From positions 1-64,000 of the IMG/VR virus record IMGVR_UViG_3300046834_000025: 64,000 bases of DNA. One strand, 5' to 3'. Positions 2,600 to 38,349 of the stretch are shown piece after piece. The stretch comes from a virus. Position numbers and translations under genes: made by a program. Position 1 is the stretch's first letter. Every line of letters starts with the position of its first letter. Under the pieces are notes generated by a model. The model did no database searches. It was not told the origin of the DNA and worked only from the letters and a program-made list of their open reading frames with translations.

Positions 2600-2966
2600 C
2601 TCTGATCCGCCTCTCGAGTTCTTCGAACTTGTGTGGCTGCATCGAGAATACGAGTTCTCTTACGTAGCCATCGAGTAGGAGAGTCAACTTGCGTTCCTGC
2701 AGGGAGCAACAACCATGCTCGTTGACCATGCGAGGGAGGACGTTCCAGGCTCCCGCCAGGGCTGCTTCGACGTGATGCGGTTCTGGCTTCCAGACCGTAT
2801 GTACGTCGCTCCAGTCCATGCCACTGCGTTGCATCGCACCGAACCGGGCGCGGCCATCTCTAGCAACACGTTTCCCGATGAGCTCTAGTGCTCTCATCAC
2901 AGCCATGTCCGCTGCAGCACACAAGGCTGCAGCGTCATTGTTAGCCGTTGACCGGGCCAGAGCCAC
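2583..2966 (-). CDS. Hypothetical head-module protein
   Basis: GTG with AAGGAG RBS overlapping the portal end; VMRALELIGKR segment. Confidence 0.7.
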   Translation of the reverse strand: MALARSTANNDAAALCAAADMAVMRALELIGKRVARDGRARFGAMQRSGMDWSDVHTVWKPEPHHVEAALAGAWNVLPRMVNEHGCCSLQERKLTLLLDGYVRELVFSMQPHKFEELERRIRDAIQS

Positions 2967-4653
2967 TGGGTGCTCCTTCCGCCGCAACCGGTGGTCTCGC
3001 ACCGTTGGTGGGTCTGGCGGGAGCAGGCGTGCCAGCGACTGCAGGTCGGGCGCCAGGGACGGCAGGTGCACCGTTGGCTGACGCCTGTGGCGGTGGTGCC
3101 TGCGGGGTATTGCCTGGTGCCAGCGGCTTCAGAGTGTCCGGCACGCGCTGACTGCTGACCACATCTGCGCCAGACTCCGGCGTGCCGTCCAGAACTGCCA
3201 TGACGGATCTCACGATCTCTGGCATATTGTCGATCAGTTGCGGGTTACCCTGCGCGATGCTGAGCGCGATCTCGATTGCCTGTGCTGCGCTGTTCGGCGC
3301 ATCCGTCTCTTCGAAGCCCGCCGCCTCTCGGAGAGCCTTGTCGCTGATCGCGCCGACCGCGTGAAGGGTGCTGGCATCCTCGAGACGGTTTGGCCGCTGG
3401 ACCAGGTGAGAGACATCGAACTTGAGGGTGTAGCTGTCCGGGTCAGGATCGCCCTGCTGCTTCTTGATAGGCCGGTAGAAGCCGTGGGTGAGAGCATCCG
3501 CGATCAGGTCGAGACGCGGGACGACGTGGGTCTGAATGACTTCGTCGCGGACTAACCACATTCCCCAGTGGTTTGCGTCTCCCATGCCTTGCAAGAGTTC
3601 GGGAGGAGCGTCCAGACCCAGGCCAAGACGCCTGATCGCTTCCTCCCGAAGGCCGTGTGTCTCCTTGTCGAATGGCGTCGAGAACGTGTCGTAGCGAATC
3701 TTGGAGATTGAGTCGTCGGGTGCGCCCATCAAGACCGGCACGATCGCAGAAGCGTTGCTACGGTCCTCGATCGGAAGCAACATGCCCTGCATGATCGCGT
3801 TCAGAACAGGGTTCTCGGCGAAGGACTGCTGTTCGGCGGAGGATGGTGCGACCTTGGCGCTGTTCAGGATTGAGTTCGGAATCCAGTACACACCTGCTCC
3901 GGCCAACCGAGAGTCGATCTGCGCACTCACGTGCTGCGTGAGACCGACAAGCTCTCGCAGGACCGGCAAGCAGGAGATGACCGGACTGTCAGCCTGTTCC
4001 CACTCGGCAGGATGCGGATCCCAGATACGCTCGAGGTAGATCTTGTCCTCTTCGTACTCTTCGCCGCGAATCTGGACCCTGCCGTTGGTGGCCTTGACCT
4101 CGAGCTTGGAGGCGATGAACCAGATCGTGTCTTCGCCGGTCGCCGCGCCTGCGTCCGGCGCAATGGTCGAGCCGTCCAAGATCTCCTTGAGTTCCTTGCC
4201 GACCGGCACGCCGACCAGGTAGCCAGAGCCTGCCACGTAGATGTTGAGGCTCAAGCGTTCCACCATCTGCGGCGTGATGAGCGCGATGAGCGGGTCTTCG
4301 TCCTCGCTGTCGTCGACGCGTGCGCCGTCCTTCTCCACGTAGAGGATGGCCTGCGCGCATCGACCGGAGATCGCGTTGGCGATGTAGCGTAGCTCGCCAA
4401 CCTCGTTGTACATCCGCCAGACTTCCTCGTCAGCGGACGTAGAGGTTGTCGTCTGCATGGCGGAGACGGCACCTTTGGCCGTGCGCTTAGCCTTGCCCGT
4501 CACCACGCGGACAGCGGCACCTACGAGGGAGGGTGGAGGCGAGATGGCGGTGTTGTCACTGGTCGGCGCGTTGTACGACCAGGCTGGCGGGTTGACGTGT
4601 ACAGGTTGAGGCTGTGTGCGCGCCCGTCGGCGCTGCTCGAACCAACTCGCCAT
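2941..4653 (-). CDS. Portal protein
   Basis: 570 aa between terminase and MuF; RIWDPHP, SRLAGAG, IRRLGLGLDAPPELL, NHWGMW motifs of actinophage portals. Confidence 0.88.
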   Translation of the reverse strand: MASWFEQRRRARTQPQPVHVNPPAWSYNAPTSDNTAISPPPSLVGAAVRVVTGKAKRTAKGAVSAMQTTTSTSADEEVWRMYNEVGELRYIANAISGRCAQAILYVEKDGARVDDSEDEDPLIALITPQMVERLSLNIYVAGSGYLVGVPVGKELKEILDGSTIAPDAGAATGEDTIWFIASKLEVKATNGRVQIRGEEYEEDKIYLERIWDPHPAEWEQADSPVISCLPVLRELVGLTQHVSAQIDSRLAGAGVYWIPNSILNSAKVAPSSAEQQSFAENPVLNAIMQGMLLPIEDRSNASAIVPVLMGAPDDSISKIRYDTFSTPFDKETHGLREEAIRRLGLGLDAPPELLQGMGDANHWGMWLVRDEVIQTHVVPRLDLIADALTHGFYRPIKKQQGDPDPDSYTLKFDVSHLVQRPNRLEDASTLHAVGAISDKALREAAGFEETDAPNSAAQAIEIALSIAQGNPQLIDNMPEIVRSVMAVLDGTPESGADVVSSQRVPDTLKPLAPGNTPQAPPPQASANGAPAVPGARPAVAGTPAPARPTNGARPPVAAEGAPSGSGPVNG

Positions 4654-4656
4654 GTC

Positions 4657-5406
4657 TCATATTACCACGGCATCTGCCAGTTGAGTGCGAGTGGCAAGGT
4701 CGAAGATCGTACTGTCTACACGGTTGCTCTTTCTGATGTTGCAGCGGAGGTGTGCTAGCTGTACGTTTGCAAGGATGTCAGGACCATCGAGGCTGATCGG
4801 TAGAACGTGATCGATCGAGGGTGAGGCAGGATCAGGATGCTTGAGCTTGAGATCGACCGGCTCACCACAGAGACCGCAGTCGAGGCCATCTCGATCAATG
4901 ATGTCTTGCCTCGTGTAAGGCTCAGTCGGAACGGCTGCCTTGTTGGCTCTGCGCTTTGCCCTCCAGGATCGCACCTTGTCGGGATTCGCTAGCTTGTATC
5001 GCTTCTGTTGTGCCAGCGCCTGCTCTTTGTTTGCAGCGTACCATGCCTGAGCTTGTACAAGTAGGCGATCTGCATTCAGTGCGTAGTAGGCTCTCTTGCA
5101 CGGTATGCACTCACCATTGGTATTACGCTCGTTCATACCACATCGGTCACAAGGTTGTGACTTCCGACATGGTATGCAAGTTCCAGCTACAGTGCGTTCT
5201 GTTGCACCGCATGTCTTGCAAGGTCGAGCCTGCAGGCAGGATACACACTTGCCATCTGACAGTCGTTCAGTTGAGCCACATTGCTTGCAAGGAGGGGGGT
5301 TGAGCCTCATCTGCTCTCGGTACGCACGATTGAAGGCTAGCTTGCAGCTTCGACATTCACCGCTCTTGTACCATTCCGTTCCCTTGCAGCGCAAACACTC
5401 TTTCAT
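4657..5406 (-). CDS. HNH endonuclease with CxxC repeats
   Basis: CGLCGE...SIDHVLP...NVQLAHLRCNIRK; ATG overlaps the terminase stop. Confidence 0.88.
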   Translation of the reverse strand: MKECLRCKGTEWYKSGECRSCKLAFNRAYREQMRLNPPPCKQCGSTERLSDGKCVSCLQARPCKTCGATERTVAGTCIPCRKSQPCDRCGMNERNTNGECIPCKRAYYALNADRLLVQAQAWYAANKEQALAQQKRYKLANPDKVRSWRAKRRANKAAVPTEPYTRQDIIDRDGLDCGLCGEPVDLKLKHPDPASPSIDHVLPISLDGPDILANVQLAHLRCNIRKSNRVDSTIFDLATRTQLADAVVI

Positions 5407-7007
5407 CCGCGCCTCGTGAACCGAGGAATCGTGGGGTGCCTGGACGGGCCGTACCGACCACGGCTGCGCTGAGGCGTGCCCGCCGTGGGAGGTGCCGCGT
5501 AGGACCTCGAGACATGTCCCTGCGGGACGAACGGAGTCGTGGTGCCGGTGCTCCACATCCGGCGCAGGGCTTGAGCGGTGCAGTCGATCTGGTCGTCGTG
5601 GGCCGAGTTCGGGAAGTTGCGAGCCTCGCTGAGGAAGTCCGGCAACCAGTCTGCCTCTGCCGGGAGGAAGACGTGCTTGCTCTCCACGGTCGGACTGATC
5701 GAACGGGCTCGTGCTTCCTTGGATTCAGTGGGGTTGATGGCGATCAGGCCGGGAATCTCAGTGGTGAGGGTGTCGATGACGGCGGTCCCGTTCGCCTTGT
5801 CCTCGATCAGGTGCTCATGCACGCCGACGCCTTCGGGCAGCCAGAGGTTGCAGGAGTTGACGAATGAGCGCATCTCGGCAATCGACTCCGTGAACGTGAG
5901 CCTCTTCCTGATCTGGCGGAGCAGGAATCGGTCGGGTCCGGCGCTAGCCCAGAGTTGGCCGACCACGTAGTCGCTCGAGGACAAGTTCTTGAATGCCATG
6001 TCCCAACTCGTGAGCACGCGGTCGAACTCTGGCAAGTCGTTCTGTGTGCGCCAGAACTGCCACCAGTCGTTCGAGAAGATGTTCCCTGATGCAGGAGAAG
6101 GAGACTGCTGAAAAAGTGCGGACCACGCGTAGCTGCCGACTGCCTGCCGGATGTCGGCCCACCGTGCGAGGGCTTCCTGCGCCGTCTCGATCACGATCGG
6201 GGACAGTAGAGGCTCACCCTCCTTGCGGCCCAACACATCGTCACCTTCGGCCAGGGCTGGAAAGCTGATAACCTCCCACTGTGCGGGGTCGCCGTCATAC
6301 TCAGGGGAGAGAAGCCTGCCCACGAAATCGTCTTCGTGCCAACGAGTCTGAATAGCGATGACCAGCGACGGCGGGTGAAGACGGGTACGAGAGTTTGCAG
6401 TCCACCAGTCCCAGACGAAGTTTCGGATCGTCGGGCTGTGCGCATCAGCGAAGTCTTTCGTGATATCGTCGAGCACCATTACCTTTGCACCACGACCAGT
6501 GACACTCTCTCGGATTGAGCGACTCAAGACGACACCACGACGGTCGATGGTTTGGCCGTCCTTGACGCCCTTCAAGGCCGGTCGCTGGACCTCCCACTCT
6601 TTTGCTGCGCCTGCGTCCTTGGCGACTTGTAGGTCGAGGGAAGGCCCGTTGACGTCGATTGCGTTTCTGATCTGTCTGCCCCACCCTGCAGCAAGAGACG
6701 GATCGTGGGACAGCAGCATGATCTCCCAGGACGGGTGCTTGTGCAGCACCCATAAAGGTAGGTACACACTGGTAAGCATGGACTTGCCCGTCCTCGGGGG
6801 GAGACTCACTGCAAGATAACGACTCTTGCCTTGCTCGACATCGTGAAGCGCTGCGGCCAGCCGGTCAGACAAGTACTTGAGATGGTCGCGAACGACGTAG
6901 CCGCTGTCCAAGGACAGGGCTAGCTCGAGGGGGTTGGACCAGGTTTGCTTGGTTCCCAACTGAGAGAAGATCTCCTCTTGGAGGGAATCGATCCAATCAG
7001 CGCTCAC
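5403..7007 (-). CDS. terL: Terminase large subunit
   Basis: PPRTGKS Walker A, VLDD Walker B, TRWHEDD, SWDMAFK, IEDKANG, HDDQID nuclease motifs. Confidence 0.93.
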   Translation of the reverse strand: MSADWIDSLQEEIFSQLGTKQTWSNPLELALSLDSGYVVRDHLKYLSDRLAAALHDVEQGKSRYLAVSLPPRTGKSMLTSVYLPLWVLHKHPSWEIMLLSHDPSLAAGWGRQIRNAIDVNGPSLDLQVAKDAGAAKEWEVQRPALKGVKDGQTIDRRGVVLSRSIRESVTGRGAKVMVLDDITKDFADAHSPTIRNFVWDWWTANSRTRLHPPSLVIAIQTRWHEDDFVGRLLSPEYDGDPAQWEVISFPALAEGDDVLGRKEGEPLLSPIVIETAQEALARWADIRQAVGSYAWSALFQQSPSPASGNIFSNDWWQFWRTQNDLPEFDRVLTSWDMAFKNLSSSDYVVGQLWASAGPDRFLLRQIRKRLTFTESIAEMRSFVNSCNLWLPEGVGVHEHLIEDKANGTAVIDTLTTEIPGLIAINPTESKEARARSISPTVESKHVFLPAEADWLPDFLSEARNFPNSAHDDQIDCTAQALRRMWSTGTTTPFVPQGHVSRSYAAPPTAGTPQRSRGRYGPSRHPTIPRFTRRG

Positions 7008-12633: not shown

Positions 12634-12919
12634 CGTTGTCCTCTCCCAACAGACCGTCGATGAACGAGAGCAGGATGTCGGCAAGCTCAGGACAGTTGCC
12701 GAACGACGCACCAGGAATCCACGGGTGTCGCTTACCGTCGATGCCGATGTAGTCGAGGTTCGCTCGCGCGTGCCGAAGAGCCCATTCGAGTTTCGAGTGG
12801 TGGCCGATCGGAAAGAAGTCGGTCTCCAGGTCGAACGGTCCAGGTGCGACCGGCGTGCGGGTGATCAACAGACCGGGCTTGCCTTCGACGGTTGAGACAG
12901 ACCAGGAGTTCGCGCTCAT
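12608..12919 (-). CDS. Hypothetical protein
   Basis: Preceded by GAGAGGAAACCG start-associated sequence. Confidence 0.65.
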   Translation of the reverse strand: MSANSWSVSTVEGKPGLLITRTPVAPGPFDLETDFFPIGHHSKLEWALRHARANLDYIGIDGKRHPWIPGASFGNCPELADILLSFIDGLLGEDNGGDQEEPR

Positions 12920-12939
12920 CGGTTTCCTCTCAAGAGATG

Positions 12940-12978
12940 GCCGGTCCCCTGCCCTGTGACAGAGGGCAGGGGACCGGC
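12940..12978. terminator. GC-rich hairpin (terminator or processing site)
   Basis: GCCGGTCCCCTGCCCT / AGGGCAGGGGACCGGC 16-bp stem; no U-tract. Confidence 0.55.
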
Positions 12979-13037
12979 TCTGCAACCCGTGGTAGCTCAC
13001 CGCCTCTGTGTACGGACGGGCCTCACCGTGGGTTGTT

Positions 13038-13109
13038 CTAGAGGACGGCCACCAGCCACACGATCAGGCAGATGGCGACCAGGACGCCGACGATGGTCCA
13101 GATGTTCAT
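13038..13109 (-). CDS. 23-aa single-TM peptide
   Basis: MNIWTIVGVLVAICLIVWLVAVL; TGATG coupling. Confidence 0.5.
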   Translation of the reverse strand: MNIWTIVGVLVAICLIVWLVAVL

Positions 13110-13393
13110 CAGAGAACGTCGTCCTGCTGCTCCGCCGACTGGTCCGGCGAAACGAGGTCCGGGTGCGCCTGCAGGAACGCGACACGCTTCTCAGCGGCGG
13201 TGACGGCGGCGTCGGCGGAGATGACCTCGTCCTTCTTCTCGAGCAGGATGCGCTCGTACTTCTCGATCAGCGCGGGGTTCTCCGCGTCGATGCGCTCCTT
13301 GCGCTTGCGCGCCGTCTCGAGCACACGCTGCGCGGTCTCGAGCTCGTCCTGCGCGCGCTGCTGCGGGGTCCGGCGTTCCCTGGTGTTGGCCAC
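13109..13393 (-). CDS. Coiled-coil hypothetical protein, first gene of the leftward operon
   Basis: GTG with AGAGGAG RBS; TATGAT -10 at 13428-13433. Confidence 0.65.
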   Translation of the reverse strand: MANTRERRTPQQRAQDELETAQRVLETARKRKERIDAENPALIEKYERILLEKKDEVISADAAVTAAEKRVAFLQAHPDLVSPDQSAEQQDDVL

Positions 13394-13480
13394 CCTGATC
13401 TCTCCTCTGATTGATTCCGTTTGATACATCATACCGCGACCGGTGCGCTTTCGCTGCAGTTTCGCCGACCTCGATACACC

Positions 13481-13509
13481 TCGACAGTTCTTCCGGCTCA
13501 CGGTAGTTT
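13481..13509 (+). promoter_or_regulatory. SigA-like promoter of the ncRNA candidate
   Basis: TCGACA-N17-TAGTTT. Confidence 0.5.
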
Positions 13510-13515
13510 GCCGTC

Positions 13516-14075
13516 CTCGTGCCCGTAGGTGACGGTCTCTCTGCCGGTCTCCTGACGGTGGTGGTGGCCGGTCGCTACCGTCGGGCCGGGTCCAGAGATC
13601 GGCACGTAGGGCCAGACGGTAGGCTGGCACCTCTGTGCCTGGCCGCAACCTACTAAAGACCGCGTGCTCTGCGGGCTGCTCTCGCGACCGAGCACGGTCT
13701 GCTCTCGCTACCGGCAGGCCGGTCGCAAAGGCACCGCGCGGCGAAACGCCGCAGGCGTGCCGCTCTCGCGGGCGGGTGTACCCTGGTGCACGAAAGAACG
13801 ACTGACCGCTCTCTGGCAGAGACGGCAACCTCTGGCCACTCTGGGCCAGTTATGCCGTCTCGTCGAGAGGCCGGTCTGTATCAGCGACCGAGCACGGACG
13901 CCGTTGATCTTGAGCGCGGGCTCCTGGTACAGAGTGGCCGTAGGCGGGCATCTCTGGACCTGGACGGTTCGCGCGGTGTGCAAAGACGCGGCATGCCCGA
14001 GGCACGGCAGCCCGACCAGGTGCCACCACCGGTGGACAGAGGTGCAACTCGGCACGGTGACAGTCTGTGCCGAAG
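13516..14075 (+). ncRNA. Candidate large structured RNA (~560 nt), unknown family
   Basis: Nested long-range helices and local hairpins with G-U pairs on the plus strand; no credible CDS. Confidence 0.5.
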
Positions 14076-14137
14076 TACCGGCTGTTCGGCCTCAGTGTCG
14101 AGGCACAAGGTTGCGGAACTTGTTTCCTCGCGCCGAG

Positions 14138-14548
14138 ACCCGTTGTCCAGCTTTCAGTTTGGTTGTTGTTGGCGCGCAACGCCGTCCCGACCAGGTGGGA
14201 GTCCCGTGGGAGTGGGAAGACACTGGGAACAGTCCCGACCGTTCCAAATCGATTCTTATTCTTATCGATGAAAATTTAAATCGAATCTGCGTCCAACCAA
14301 TCTAATCCCACACACTCCCCACTCCCACCACCCATTTCCAGGACAAACCAGGACAAAACGGATCGTTTACTTTTCGATGGTGTACCGCCGTCGAAAGTTA
14401 TTGCACCGCAGTGAAATATACGCGCGGCGAAATCGGCTGCGACAGAAGCGACCGGCGCTTGATTCTAAGCGACCGGCGCTTGATTCTAAGCGACCGGCGC
14501 TTAAACCCGTTGTCCAGCATCCAGTTTGGTGGTTGTTGGCGCGCAACG
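14138..14548. repeat. Origin-like region: 44-bp direct repeat, GTGGGAGT inverted motifs, AT-rich core, 21-bp tandem repeats
   Basis: 14138-14181 vs 14505-14548 (41/44 identical); AT-rich 14247-14288; AAGCGACCGGCGCTT at 14446, 14467 and 14488. Confidence 0.7.
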
Positions 14549-14777
14549 GCTCTCGCCGTCGAGGTTTCTTCGCGAGTGGCGGTGGTCCGGCTGGCTGGCG
14601 GCGTGCTGATTTTGGGGGCTCTGCCAGGTTCTCGGCAGTCCGGTTCACTCCCCCACAGTCAACCACGGTGGGAGTCGATGGAAGTCCTTTGCAACCGAAC
14701 CACCCTCAAACCGTCATTTCACGGTTGTTAGTCCCGCAACCCCGCGAGCCCCGAACCACTCCCACACAAACCCCTGA

Positions 14778-17297
14778 TCAGAGCAACTTCGTGTTTGTGT
14801 CCACGATCTGCCACAGAGCCGTGTTCGACTTCTTCCCTGCATCTCGCACAGACAGCCCTCCGGCCCAACGGCCTTCACGGTACCGGAACCACTTCCCCAA
14901 CGTCTTGGCTGTTGAGGTGTGGTTGCCTCGCTTCGCGAGCACGTCCTCCGGCAACGCTTCCTCCGGCAGACCGCCTTCCAACCCCACACTGTCGAGCAGC
15001 TTCGCGACAGTGAACGGCTTGTCTCCGCACACCAGGTACGCCGCCTGCAGGAAGCTGCCCCACTCTTCTTCGTCCTCGAGCCCGGTCTCCCGGATCGAGT
15101 CCGGGTGGTTGACCCGTCCAACAAGCCCCGCGTGCTGCAGGATCGAGTCGCAGACCTGCTGCCACACTGCAAACGAGTCCGACCGTGCCGCCTCCACGAG
15201 AGGCCGACCGGCCACGACCCAGTCAGACACCACACCGAGCAGCGCAGCGAGCAGCCGACCACGGTTCGCCTCGACCCAACCCTCAAGGTCCGGGTGCAGG
15301 AAGTCGACCCGTGTCTCCGGGTGTTCCATCCTGGGATCGATCGTGACCCAGATCGTCCGGCGTTTCAGGTCTCCCCCGAGAGCCAGGTTGTTGCCCGTGA
15401 TCGTCCAGAGCCGGTCGTTCCGCATCGTTCGGTCTTCCGTGCGACCGAGAATCCGGTCTGTCCACTCGCGTGACGTCAACAGGCCGTCCAGAACAGCCGA
15501 ACGCAGCACGCCTGCCATGTTGTCGAACGTCACGACCGGCGCAGAAGTTGTATCCAGGATGGCCGTGATCTGCTTTCTCAGTTCCGCAACGTCGCGCGGC
15601 ATCTCCGACCGAAACACGCCGCCGTGGATCAGCCGCATCACAGAGGTACAGAGCGACTTGCCAGCACCGGGCTGAGGTGCGCCGACAGCGATCAGCGGGT
15701 ACGGTGGAGGCACTAACAGCCGAAGAACAGGCGTCAACAACGCCGCCAAGTAGTTTGCCTTGTCGTGCTCCGTTTGGAACGGGAAGTCCACCACCAGTTC
15801 CTCGAGCAACCCTAAACCGCCGTGTCTCGCAAGGTCAACCTCGAGCCCTTCGGGCGGCAAGTACAGAGTCCGTGTGTCTTGGTCGTATCCCGGCTTGTCC
15901 AGGATCGAACCGTCCTTCCGCACCAACGGAGTGTGCGTGATCGCTTCGAGATCGCGAACGGCTCGAAGCTCATCCGGCGCAGCGAGGAACATCGAGAACA
16001 CTTGAGTGGGAAAGACCGCTCGAACACGCTCGCCGCCCTTCCGCATCCGATAGACCTTGATCTTCTTCGCGACGAAGCGTGCAGCAAGAGCAGCCTCGTT
16101 CAGCCGTCGAACCTGTGCTGGCCCGTCGTCGCCGTCCTTCGGTGGCTCGTATCCATTCTCGCCGACTCTCGGCGTGTGCACCAGATCGAACCCTCTTCGG
16201 AACACGCCACCGTGCCGTGATCCCGGCATCCCCAACGTCATGATCAGCCACTCGGCAGCGTCGACGGCGTTCGTGACATCGACCTCGTGCGGGTTCGGTC
16301 CCGTCCGAACCGTCGTCCCGTCTCCCTGATCCGCGTCATCGTCCCACGCCTCGAAATCGTTCTCGACCGTTGGGCGTCCAGGCCCGACCTCATCCGCCTT
16401 CCGGCGTGCGCGTTCCGTGACATACTGGTGCTCCGACCAAGTCCACGGCTCGTTGCCCTTGGCCCGCTGTGCCGCGTGCCACATCGGCGTTTCGACCTCT
16501 TGCAGATCGAGGCACCCGCCGTCGACCAACTGATACAGGGTCACCATCATCGCGAACAGAGCGGAGTTCCGTCCGGCGAACTCCTCGCCCGTGTCCTTGC
16601 GTTGCAATGTCTCAAGCTGCTTGATGTACTTCTTCAGGATGCCGTGCGCGCGTTCGACTTGCCTTTCTGTCGGTTCGCTGTCTTCGTCGAAGTCTGTCTC
16701 GAGGGCACTCTTGCCCGCCTGCACCGTTGCAAGCCGTTCCGTGATGCCTGTCGAGTCCGCGATCGCGAGCCAGTCGTCCGCAACCAGGTACGCGCCGTCG
16801 AAGACACGGTACTGGAACGCTGACTCGTTCGCTGCTGGCCCGTACATCATCCGTGCCGGTTCGGCGCACGAGAGATCGAACTGCCCGACACCATGTTGCT
16901 CCATGAGAGCCCACACGATCCGGGTGTACTCTCCTGGCTCAACGTCTCTGTCCAGGGGCAGATGGATTCGGTACCGAGGGTTGACATCTGTGTGCGAGAA
17001 GGTTGTGTGCCAGACGAAAGCTGTTCCGTCTCGTGCCCGTTCAAAACCCTCGATGAACTCGAGCCCTGCTCTGTCAGCGTCCAGGTGAACGATCGACCGT
17101 GAGCGAACATTCGCAACAAGTTTGCGAGGCCCGGACAGATCGCCACCGAAGAACCCGTCGCACTCTTTATCTGCGGCAGGCTGGTCAAGATGAAGTAGCT
17201 CGACAAACTCATTCCAGGACAGATCGTGCCCTATCCAGTTTTTCGAGATCGCCGCTGGTGCATCTGCCGTCGCGACGTGGAATAGCCTCGCACTCAT
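14778..17297 (-). CDS. DNA primase/helicase
   Basis: LDAD...HTTFSH...PRYRIHLPL primase-like N-terminus; C-terminal P-loop QPGAGKS and VTFDN. Confidence 0.8.
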   Translation of the reverse strand: MSARLFHVATADAPAAISKNWIGHDLSWNEFVELLHLDQPAADKECDGFFGGDLSGPRKLVANVRSRSIVHLDADRAGLEFIEGFERARDGTAFVWHTTFSHTDVNPRYRIHLPLDRDVEPGEYTRIVWALMEQHGVGQFDLSCAEPARMMYGPAANESAFQYRVFDGAYLVADDWLAIADSTGITERLATVQAGKSALETDFDEDSEPTERQVERAHGILKKYIKQLETLQRKDTGEEFAGRNSALFAMMVTLYQLVDGGCLDLQEVETPMWHAAQRAKGNEPWTWSEHQYVTERARRKADEVGPGRPTVENDFEAWDDDADQGDGTTVRTGPNPHEVDVTNAVDAAEWLIMTLGMPGSRHGGVFRRGFDLVHTPRVGENGYEPPKDGDDGPAQVRRLNEAALAARFVAKKIKVYRMRKGGERVRAVFPTQVFSMFLAAPDELRAVRDLEAITHTPLVRKDGSILDKPGYDQDTRTLYLPPEGLEVDLARHGGLGLLEELVVDFPFQTEHDKANYLAALLTPVLRLLVPPPYPLIAVGAPQPGAGKSLCTSVMRLIHGGVFRSEMPRDVAELRKQITAILDTTSAPVVTFDNMAGVLRSAVLDGLLTSREWTDRILGRTEDRTMRNDRLWTITGNNLALGGDLKRRTIWVTIDPRMEHPETRVDFLHPDLEGWVEANRGRLLAALLGVVSDWVVAGRPLVEAARSDSFAVWQQVCDSILQHAGLVGRVNHPDSIRETGLEDEEEWGSFLQAAYLVCGDKPFTVAKLLDSVGLEGGLPEEALPEDVLAKRGNHTSTAKTLGKWFRYREGRWAGGLSVRDAGKKSNTALWQIVDTNTKLL

Positions 17298-17326
17298 CGC
17301 GAGCGGCACAAGCAAATCGTGAGCAT
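17294..17326 (-). CDS. 10-aa leader ORF coupled to the primase gene
   Basis: MLTICLCRSR after AGAGGGAAACCGAA; its TGA overlaps the primase ATG. Confidence 0.4.
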   Translation of the reverse strand: MLTICLCRSR

Positions 17327-19801: not shown

Positions 19802-19971
19802 AGAACTTGCCGTGAAGGCGTCAACGCGTACGAATCGAGGTCAATCATGGAGGGACCGCGCGAAGGACGCCCACAAGGGAGCACGACAAAAGGGCCTGGA
19901 TCTCGAGCCTGCCTTCCGTGCATCATCCCGGCGTACCTGCGCCTTCACGGCCACCTATCCCAGAGTGGCCA

Positions 19972-20072
19972 GAGGTTGCCACCTCTGGACCTCGTGGGCC
20001 TTTCTGGTACCCTGACCATAGGGTGCCCTCGTTCGGTCGACTCCGGCAAAACGACAGGTCGCGTGGAAGGAA
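19972..20072. repeat. 101-bp intergenic repeat, copy A
   Basis: 85/101 identical to 31395-31495; internal hairpins. Confidence 0.9.
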
Positions 20073-31394: not shown

Positions 31395-31495
31395 GAGGTT
31401 GCCACCTCTGGACCTCGAGGCCCACTTGAGTACCCTCACCATAGGGTGCCCTCGTTCGGGCCACTCTGGCGTTTTGACAGGTCGCGTGGAAGGAA
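31395..31495. repeat. 101-bp intergenic repeat, copy B
   Basis: 85/101 identical to 19972-20072. Confidence 0.9.
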
Positions 31496-38117: not shown

Positions 38118-38349
38118 TCTGGCCGACTTCGAGGTTGGCACGATCATCACCTGGACACGTGTTGTGGAGAAAGAGCCGTTCCCCTACGCGGCGATCAGAA
38201 CGCCGCGAGCCTGGCTCACGACGGCTCCCAACGATCTCATCGTGAAGCGGGTCTACTCCTTCGACAATCTGCTCGAGGTGCTGTCCCGTGAAGGTATCGC
38301 TGACGTGCGGGTCATCGGTCGAGACGATGGCACGAAGGTCGAGCCGTGA
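38074..38349 (+). CDS. Hypothetical protein
   Basis: Exact start-associated sequence. Confidence 0.7.
   Translation: MNDAMKRVKKALKGDLADFEVGTIITWTRVVEKEPFPYAAIRTPRAWLTTAPNDLIVKRVYSFDNLLEVLSREGIADVRVIGRDDGTKVEP

Follow-up and report, generated by a model that had tools for sequence, protein, structure and literature searches.

What role does a GC-rich, ORF-poor and highly paired tract of 566 nt play between two gene blocks of a phage genome? This question is raised by an IMG/VR virus contig of 77.8 kb, 94% complete by CheckV, of which bases 1-64000 were analysed; this 64-kb stretch of DNA is called the window below. The terminase encoded in the window is ~50% identical to its Microbacterium phage counterparts (47-53% identity for the closest TerL relatives), and the relatives of its primase-helicase, which share 50% identity or less with it, come from Pseudonocardia, Nocardioides, Actinoplanes and related actinobacteria. 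The source is therefore an uncultured soil actinophage without a close sequenced relative. The stretch is found in 17 soil and rhizosphere DNA sequencing runs, and the number of RNA runs among them is zero.

The tract, at 13510-14075, is best described as a structure-constrained non-coding element: it has no coding signal, it folds better than chance, and its natural variation is compatible with its structure. As to its identity, we give a probability of about 0.40 to the reading that it specifies a plus-strand early non-coding RNA, analogous but not homologous to the Pleft RNA of mycobacteriophages L5 and D29. The sections below set out the locus, the folding of the tract, and the evidence by which this reading and its competitors can be weighed.

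Locus layout and the probable origin

Positions 13394-14777 form a 1.38-kb gap in which codon periodicity is absent, with the GC-rich tract inside it and genes of the minus strand on both sides. To the left, GC3 periodicity is strong from 13393 downward, in the first gene of a leftward, minus-strand structural operon. The start of this operon (13393-13433) includes a GTG at 13393, the ribosome-binding site (RBS) GAGGAGAG and a -10-like TATGAT at 13433-13428, and because the operon has its own -10 and RBS near its start, a long minus-strand leader is not required. The operon continues to the terminase gene (5403-7007) and then to the portal gene (2941-4653), and an HNH endonuclease gene (4657-5556, minus strand) lies between those for the terminase large subunit and the portal. 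To the right, a primase-polymerase/helicase gene (14778-17315, minus strand) has its 3' end facing the non-coding region; its Walker A motif is invariant, PF09250 is present in its relatives, and no match to the primase-helicase was obtained in PDB or NCBIfam. The first-pass annotation of this DNA had described the tract as divergent from the packaging operon and as pointing into an origin-like region. Both descriptions hold, since the minus-strand operon contains terminase and portal and comparison with relatives now places the probable origin at 14194-14333.

The tract does not encode a protein. Codon periodicity is absent across 13400-14750, the ORFs of the tract have no match in Pfam or PHROG, and the substitutions that distinguish a natural variant allele (see below) comprise 7-10 synonymous versus 19-22 non-synonymous changes across the six frames, with stops in every frame. 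A protein-coding gene or a pseudogene is thereby ruled out. Covariance models of Rfam 15 gave 0 matches at the gathering score over the whole 64-kb window; at E<=10 there were chance-level matches (E 2.6-4.7) in 13300-14450 and none within 13510-14075. ARAGORN found neither a tRNA nor a tmRNA, hence also no adjacent tRNAs, and this identity is rejected for the tract. The early remark that RNase P, tmRNA and intron cores could not be recognised was thus borne out by Infernal/Rfam and by ARAGORN.

Where, then, does the replication origin lie? Folding was scanned in 14 loci around homologues of the primase-helicase, and in most of them the sequence that directly follows the stop codon has an extreme fold, with z between -5 and -8 for L004, L005, L007, L008, L012 and L027. 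Locus L017, from a genome flagged as unpublished, has the same design with z -12, and the conclusion on the origin is independent of it. The design common to the relatives consists of three tandem iterons of 9-10 bp and, across a spacer of 60-100 nt, three inverted ones, which together make up a large hairpin; both in actinobacterial elements and in viral contigs, it directly adjoins the 3' end of the PrimPol-helicase gene. Origins of the SaPI and pRN1 types have the same iteron/stem-loop layout (PMC9371898, PMC4234260). Within segment 14194-14333 of the phage, iterons GTGGGAGT (14195 and 14206) and an inverted iteron (14321-14328) flank a 77-nt AT-rich core; the segment folds with z ~ -4 and is ~450 nt from the primase-helicase stop codon. 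By this resemblance, it is probably the true origin, next to the tract.

Beyond the ~200-nt iteron hairpin, no further structured tract was seen in the helicase relatives, so that the conserved origin does not extend to the GC-rich tract. The proposal that the tract is the origin itself is rejected for the related reason that relatives put the origin in the iteron hairpin. Whichever reading of the tract is correct, a probable origin has been located both for this phage and for a family of actinobacterial elements. A cos site seems less likely, as far as contigs, which do not reveal the ends of a molecule, allow a judgement: for Microbacterium phage Terij, one of the closest TerL relatives, the genome is annotated as circularly permuted, and the note in its record, in the part displayed, reads 'circularly permutated genome; the cohesive ends of the phage virion ...'.

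Several repeats surround the origin hairpin. It is bracketed by a 52-nt direct repeat (14130-14181 and 14497-14548, 88% identical), the second copy of which comes directly after three tandem 21-bp repeats (14446-14508, plus strand). These have the core AGCGACCGGC, which is also found inside the GC-rich tract, and each of them contains the palindrome AAGCG-ACCGG-CGCTT.

Folding of the tract and a natural second allele

Measured against dinucleotide shuffles, the 566-nt tract has fold z-scores of -3.93 (plus strand) and -4.49 (minus strand) with RNA energies, and its strongest value, -5.58, is obtained with DNA energies. The signal is local when followed in windows of 200 nt: those at 13500 to 13900 have z values of -3.5, -1.5, -4.6, -3.0 and -2.3 for the plus strand, and of -2.1, -2.3, -3.3, -4.6 and -0.5 for the minus strand, compared with a genome baseline of -0.6 +/- 1.5 (40 windows elsewhere) and with ~0 in the flanking genes. 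The extensive pairing reported in the first-pass annotation thus passes the shuffle check, and every helix listed there exists, with good duplex energy. Its claim of G-U mismatches on the plus strand finds no statistical support: the ratio of G-T to A-C mismatches in long helices is 28:21 versus 22:18 in shuffles. Contiguous helices of at least 10 Watson-Crick or G-U pairs number 20 on the plus strand versus 14.2 in shuffles (P 0.05), and 8 versus 7.1 on the minus strand. A second local fold signal, at 12800-13100 (z -2.4 to -3.8 on both strands), is situated among small minus-strand genes and may be an intergenic hairpin.

A natural second allele of the tract exists. Alleles were examined in 4 of the 17 DNA runs, and the variant is present in contigs from two soil runs, X2 and X5. 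Relative to the window, it is identical over 13034-13582 and 14119-14475 and differs by one base over 14473-15364; between these near-identical flanks, segment 13583-14118 carries 29 substitutions, and there are three insertions, located after 13626 (11 nt), 13650 (6 nt) and 14118 (21 nt). A divergence of ~5.4% in the 536-nt segment beside ~0.1% in the flanks (1 difference in ~1.8 kb) points to exchange of a maintained homologous module, rather than decay. Mutagenesis by a diversity-generating retroelement is rejected, as the substitutions are not adenine-specific. Blocks of 43-52 nt are invariant in the variant, and these take in a 22-mer that forms the apex of a triple-nested hairpin. Soil run X2 also contains short contigs that are 9-16% divergent in coding regions (12650-12931 and 13171-13321); these soils thus also harbour more distant relatives of the phage, from which additional alleles might be obtained.

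How do the differences between the alleles fall on the helices of the plus strand? The long-range closing helix 13560-13568/14022-14030, with 9 perfect pairs, is unchanged, and in a 13-bp hairpin with three G-U pairs (13551-13585), G13583A turns G-U into A-U. Long-range helix 13586-13600/13949-13963 grows from 14 bp in the reference to 16 bp in the variant (-31.7 to -34.5 kcal/mol): U13599C and A13950G make up a double compensatory change within 13586-13599/13950-13963, C13600G adds a pair, and A13598G yields a G-U pair. The 14-mer GCGACCGAGCACGG, previously noted as a repeat, does occur at both 13684 and 13884, and its second copy is used in helix 13632-13646/13884-13898, where C13643U mends a C-A mismatch and the energy goes from -17.8 to -22.5 kcal/mol. 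In the triple-nested hairpin (13804-13876), the block 13809-13851 around the apex is invariant; the apex itself, 13824-13845, is the 22-mer, and its exact reverse complement is found at 19959-19980. Five of the six helices touched by variant changes are stabilised, and the one that is weakened is the outer stem of the triple nest. Both internal insertions lie between helices in a nested long-range model built with the helices as constraints, a model that is 13.5 kcal/mol above the unconstrained consensus.

The real substitutions were compared with controls that had the same substitution types at random positions. For the fold of the variant itself, z is -1.65 on the plus strand, where 3 of 60 controls were as good, and -2.76 on the minus strand, where 0 of 60 were. 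The two-allele consensus fold has z -2.28 on the plus strand, where it beats 70 of 70 controls, and z -1.36 on the minus strand, where 5 of 70 controls are not beaten. A compensated pair in a helix of at least 14 pairs arises in 1.4% of plus-strand controls (p~0.014), and on the minus strand there is none. These results, which come from a single variant allele, suggest with moderate support that pairing in the tract is under constraint. As to the strand, a neutral test took structures predicted without G-U pairs and classed each substitution by its effect on its pair; plus- versus minus-compatible outcomes were 5:5, 6:5, 4:8 and 4:5.

Promoter-like site, repeats and competing readings

If the tract were transcribed rightward, where would its RNA begin and end? 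The motif TCGACA-N17-TAGTTT is indeed present at 13481-13509 (plus strand), at the exact 5' edge of the paired tract, and is the same in the variant allele. Its -10 fits the actinobacterial TANNNT, and it is one of only 6 matches to the relaxed pattern T[TC]GAC-N16-18-TANNNT genome-wide, both strands together. The original description 'promoter-driven' survives in part: the motif is there, but it does not qualify as a strong promoter, because a standard sigma-70 scan misses it and it lacks an extended -10, whereas the phage's two clear early promoters have a TGN-extended -10. At the other end, a hairpin at 14050-14072 (plus strand) comes without a U tract, and the variant alters only one base of its loop (14062); no clear U-tract terminator was seen at the tract. 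In the variant, the 21-nt insertion after 14118 gives rise to a perfect hairpin, GGAACUUG-AAAU-CAAGUUCC, with a U-rich run behind it on the plus strand. This terminator-like hairpin is ~50 nt beyond the 3' hairpin, and the reference allele has a 4-bp version only.

Under the preferred reading, a weak SigA-type promoter, divergent from that of the structural operon, would start plus-strand transcription at ~13516. The product would be a folded RNA of ~560 nt or longer that runs toward the iteron/AT-rich origin at 14194-14333, and it might regulate or activate this adjacent origin, or else act in trans as an early RNA via its 22-nt apex; the primer, packaging or sponge roles named in the first-pass annotation are likewise conjectural. 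This reading is favoured by the L5 precedent, by the compensated long-range helix and by the promoter-like site at the 5' edge; it is weakened by the strand symmetry of the signal, by the repeat architecture, by a weak promoter with no terminator, and by the lack of a homologue. A more ambitious version is somewhat less probable. It would make the tract a large structured phage RNA of a new class, ~560 nt or longer and without a homologue in the collections searched, directed toward a PrimPol-helicase iteron origin, carrying CUCUG/GUAGG repeats and a 22-nt apex that reverse-complements an early-promoter element, and having either a trans effect on early transcripts or a cis effect on origin firing.

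The collections searched are the following. Positions 13400-14380 had no match by blastn (word 11) in 50,697 phage records including L5, and scans of IMG/VR with the primase and TerL proteins did not find a close relative. DNA patterns gave no homologue either in IMG/VR (promoter 29-mer, paired 14-mers, early-element 20-mer) or in JGI metagenomes (22-mer, degenerate motif). Against 88 loci around primase homologues, blastn and nhmmer found no homologue of the tract, and in 4, then 401 Actinomycetes genomes the matches were limited to fragments of 27-70 nt, most of them on the GGTGGTGG stretch.

A different reading, which we consider somewhat less probable, is that the tract is a DNA-level accessory or regulatory element of the replication region. 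It would consist of oriented arrays of binding sites, for an initiator or an early/late regulator, and/or of single-stranded DNA hairpins by the unwound origin, and the fold potential would then reflect inverted copies of binding sites. The tract does adjoin the iteron/AT-rich origin 3' of the PrimPol-helicase gene (PMC4234260, PMC9371898), but the helicase relatives have the ~200-nt iteron hairpin only. The fold signal shows strand symmetry, peaks with DNA energies and lacks a G-U bias; however, pairing between segments 350 nt apart, and a compensatory change that improves pairing but not motif identity, are hard to reconcile with sites on double-stranded DNA. Dense oriented motifs are a further argument for binding sites, although no candidate binding protein was identified. 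For example, CTCT[CG] occurs 12 times on the plus strand versus 4 on the minus strand in 13500-13999 (genome mean 1.8 per 500 nt); all three plus-strand genome copies of GTAGG-N7-CTCT are in the tract, and one minus-strand copy is at 38187; and 8 of the 31 genome copies of GCGACCGR are in 13394-14790, three of these in the 21-bp tandem repeats. In addition, the GGTCCAGAGRY/GGCCACTCTG family, which includes the 22-mer 13824-13845, is common to the tract and to palindromes upstream of both early promoters.

The repeats also bear on how well defined an RNA fold could be. The long-range helices are made of inverted copies of motif families (GGTCCAGAGRY, GGCCACTCTG, GCGACCRRGCAC), both orientations being present, and repeat families in both orientations as helix material are unusual for a well-defined RNA fold. 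The phrase 'new large phage RNA' in the first-pass annotation is thus upheld in that the tract is non-coding and unusually paired, but its fold is strand-symmetric and its repeats fit a DNA element about equally well. If the tract is a DNA element, the control region of a PrimPol-helicase replicon can reach well past the iteron hairpin.

Further details of these families were observed. A ~30-nt unit, CCGTAGG-N7-CTCTG-N2-CCNGG, is present in three direct copies (13522-13550, 13616-13645 and 13937-13966), one of which is replaced in the variant by an inserted copy with the spacing kept. One GTAGG-N7-CTCT is lost in the variant by T13620C and rebuilt, at the same spacing, by the 11-nt insertion, and another is lost. 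The palindrome CCAGAGGT-TGCC-ACCTCTGG lies at 19959-19993 and its copy B, GGAGGT-TGCC-ACCTCTGG, at 31395-31415, and they are 160-255 nt upstream of two strong extended -10 early promoters; a role as operator, terminator or RNA target is possible for them.

Could the tract be a functionless spacer, a recombination-prone mosaic of repeats whose pairing is a by-product of direct and inverted duplications? We regard this as improbable. The tract does contain many short repeats and an internal duplication (13515-13645 ~ 13829-13966), for which P~0.01 is weak evidence, but the variant keeps or improves folding beyond what position-shuffled substitutions achieve. It is the only strongly divergent part between the strains, and the searches for homologues were empty; yet a divergence of ~5% beside ~0.1% in the flanks fits the exchange of a maintained module and not decay, and the invariant blocks of 43-52 nt include the 22-mer apex.

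Less probable still is a minus-strand leader or inter-operon spacer, transcribed with or after the primase gene, whose hairpin terminators or processing sites would insulate the late structural operon from early transcription: the flanking genes are both on the minus strand, the minus-strand z is -4.49, the variant's minus fold beats 60 of 60 controls (z -2.76) and, by reading of the sequence, a hairpin is followed by UUUAGU at ~13700-13645 (minus strand), but the structural operon owns a -10 and an RBS (13433-13393), the G-U pair of the compensated helix corresponds to a C-A mismatch in minus-strand RNA, the plus strand does better in consensus folding, and a clear U-tract terminator was not seen.

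Comparison with known systems

Among the RNA families represented in Rfam, GOLLD, ROOL, HEARO and OLE are like the tract in size class and phage context, but the tract matches no covariance model at E<=10 and has no neighbouring tRNAs.

Transcription into an origin is a feature of ColE1 RNA II and of T7-type systems. The tract is similar to these in its promoter-like site, ~600-700 nt upstream of an AT-rich origin, and in the highly folded putative transcript directed toward that origin; it is different in that the phage encodes its own primase-polymerase and in that neither an RNase H-type processing site nor an antisense regulator is evident in the phage. For the reading as a DNA element, a comparable case is RSF1010, in which ssi priming signals sit next to iterons. 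Another is the stem-loop origin of pRN1, and the pRN family has variable sequence with conserved structure between conserved flanks (PMC4234260). The phage shares with pRN1 and SaPI the kind of replication protein and the side of the gene, and 14194-14333 shows the matching architecture. The tract is unlike these origins: it is GC-rich, it is 560 nt long, it starts ~700 nt from the stop codon, and it is absent in relatives. Inverted iterons or a stem-loop around a lower-GC core 3' of rep are found at 14194-14333 and in the relatives, not at 13510-14075.

The Pleft RNA of the Cluster A mycobacteriophages L5, D29 and StarStuff, an abundant non-coding RNA of ~500 nt from the right genome end, is the precedent for the preferred reading of the tract as a plus-strand early RNA (PMC5712189). 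In L5, its promoter, start site and RNA species have been mapped experimentally, and the Pleft region is markedly variable among close relatives (PMC5712189). The function of these abundant ~500-nt RNAs of L5 and D29 is still unknown. The two cases differ in several respects. There is no sequence similarity between them, and the tract is known from its sequence alone, whereas the L5 transcript has been mapped. In L5, early genes of the same orientation follow the RNA; the gene next to the tract, in contrast, is on the opposite strand, with the origin between. As a calibration, the verified L5 Pleft RNA was put through the same folding test and gave z -3.66 in the sense and -1.96 in the antisense direction; this asymmetry is not shared by the tract (-3.93 versus -4.49), but the L5 sense value and the plus-strand value of the tract are alike. 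Also alike are the actinophage source, the length of ~500 nt, the lack of ORFs, a position adjoining the start of the structural operon in a non-coding region, and the high divergence of the region in phages that are almost the same elsewhere (for the tract, 29 substitutions and 3 indels over 536 nt). If the plus-strand RNA is real, the tract would be a second, unrelated and more strongly structured actinophage example of such an RNA, and its fold-keeping alleles would provide a comparative handle on function.
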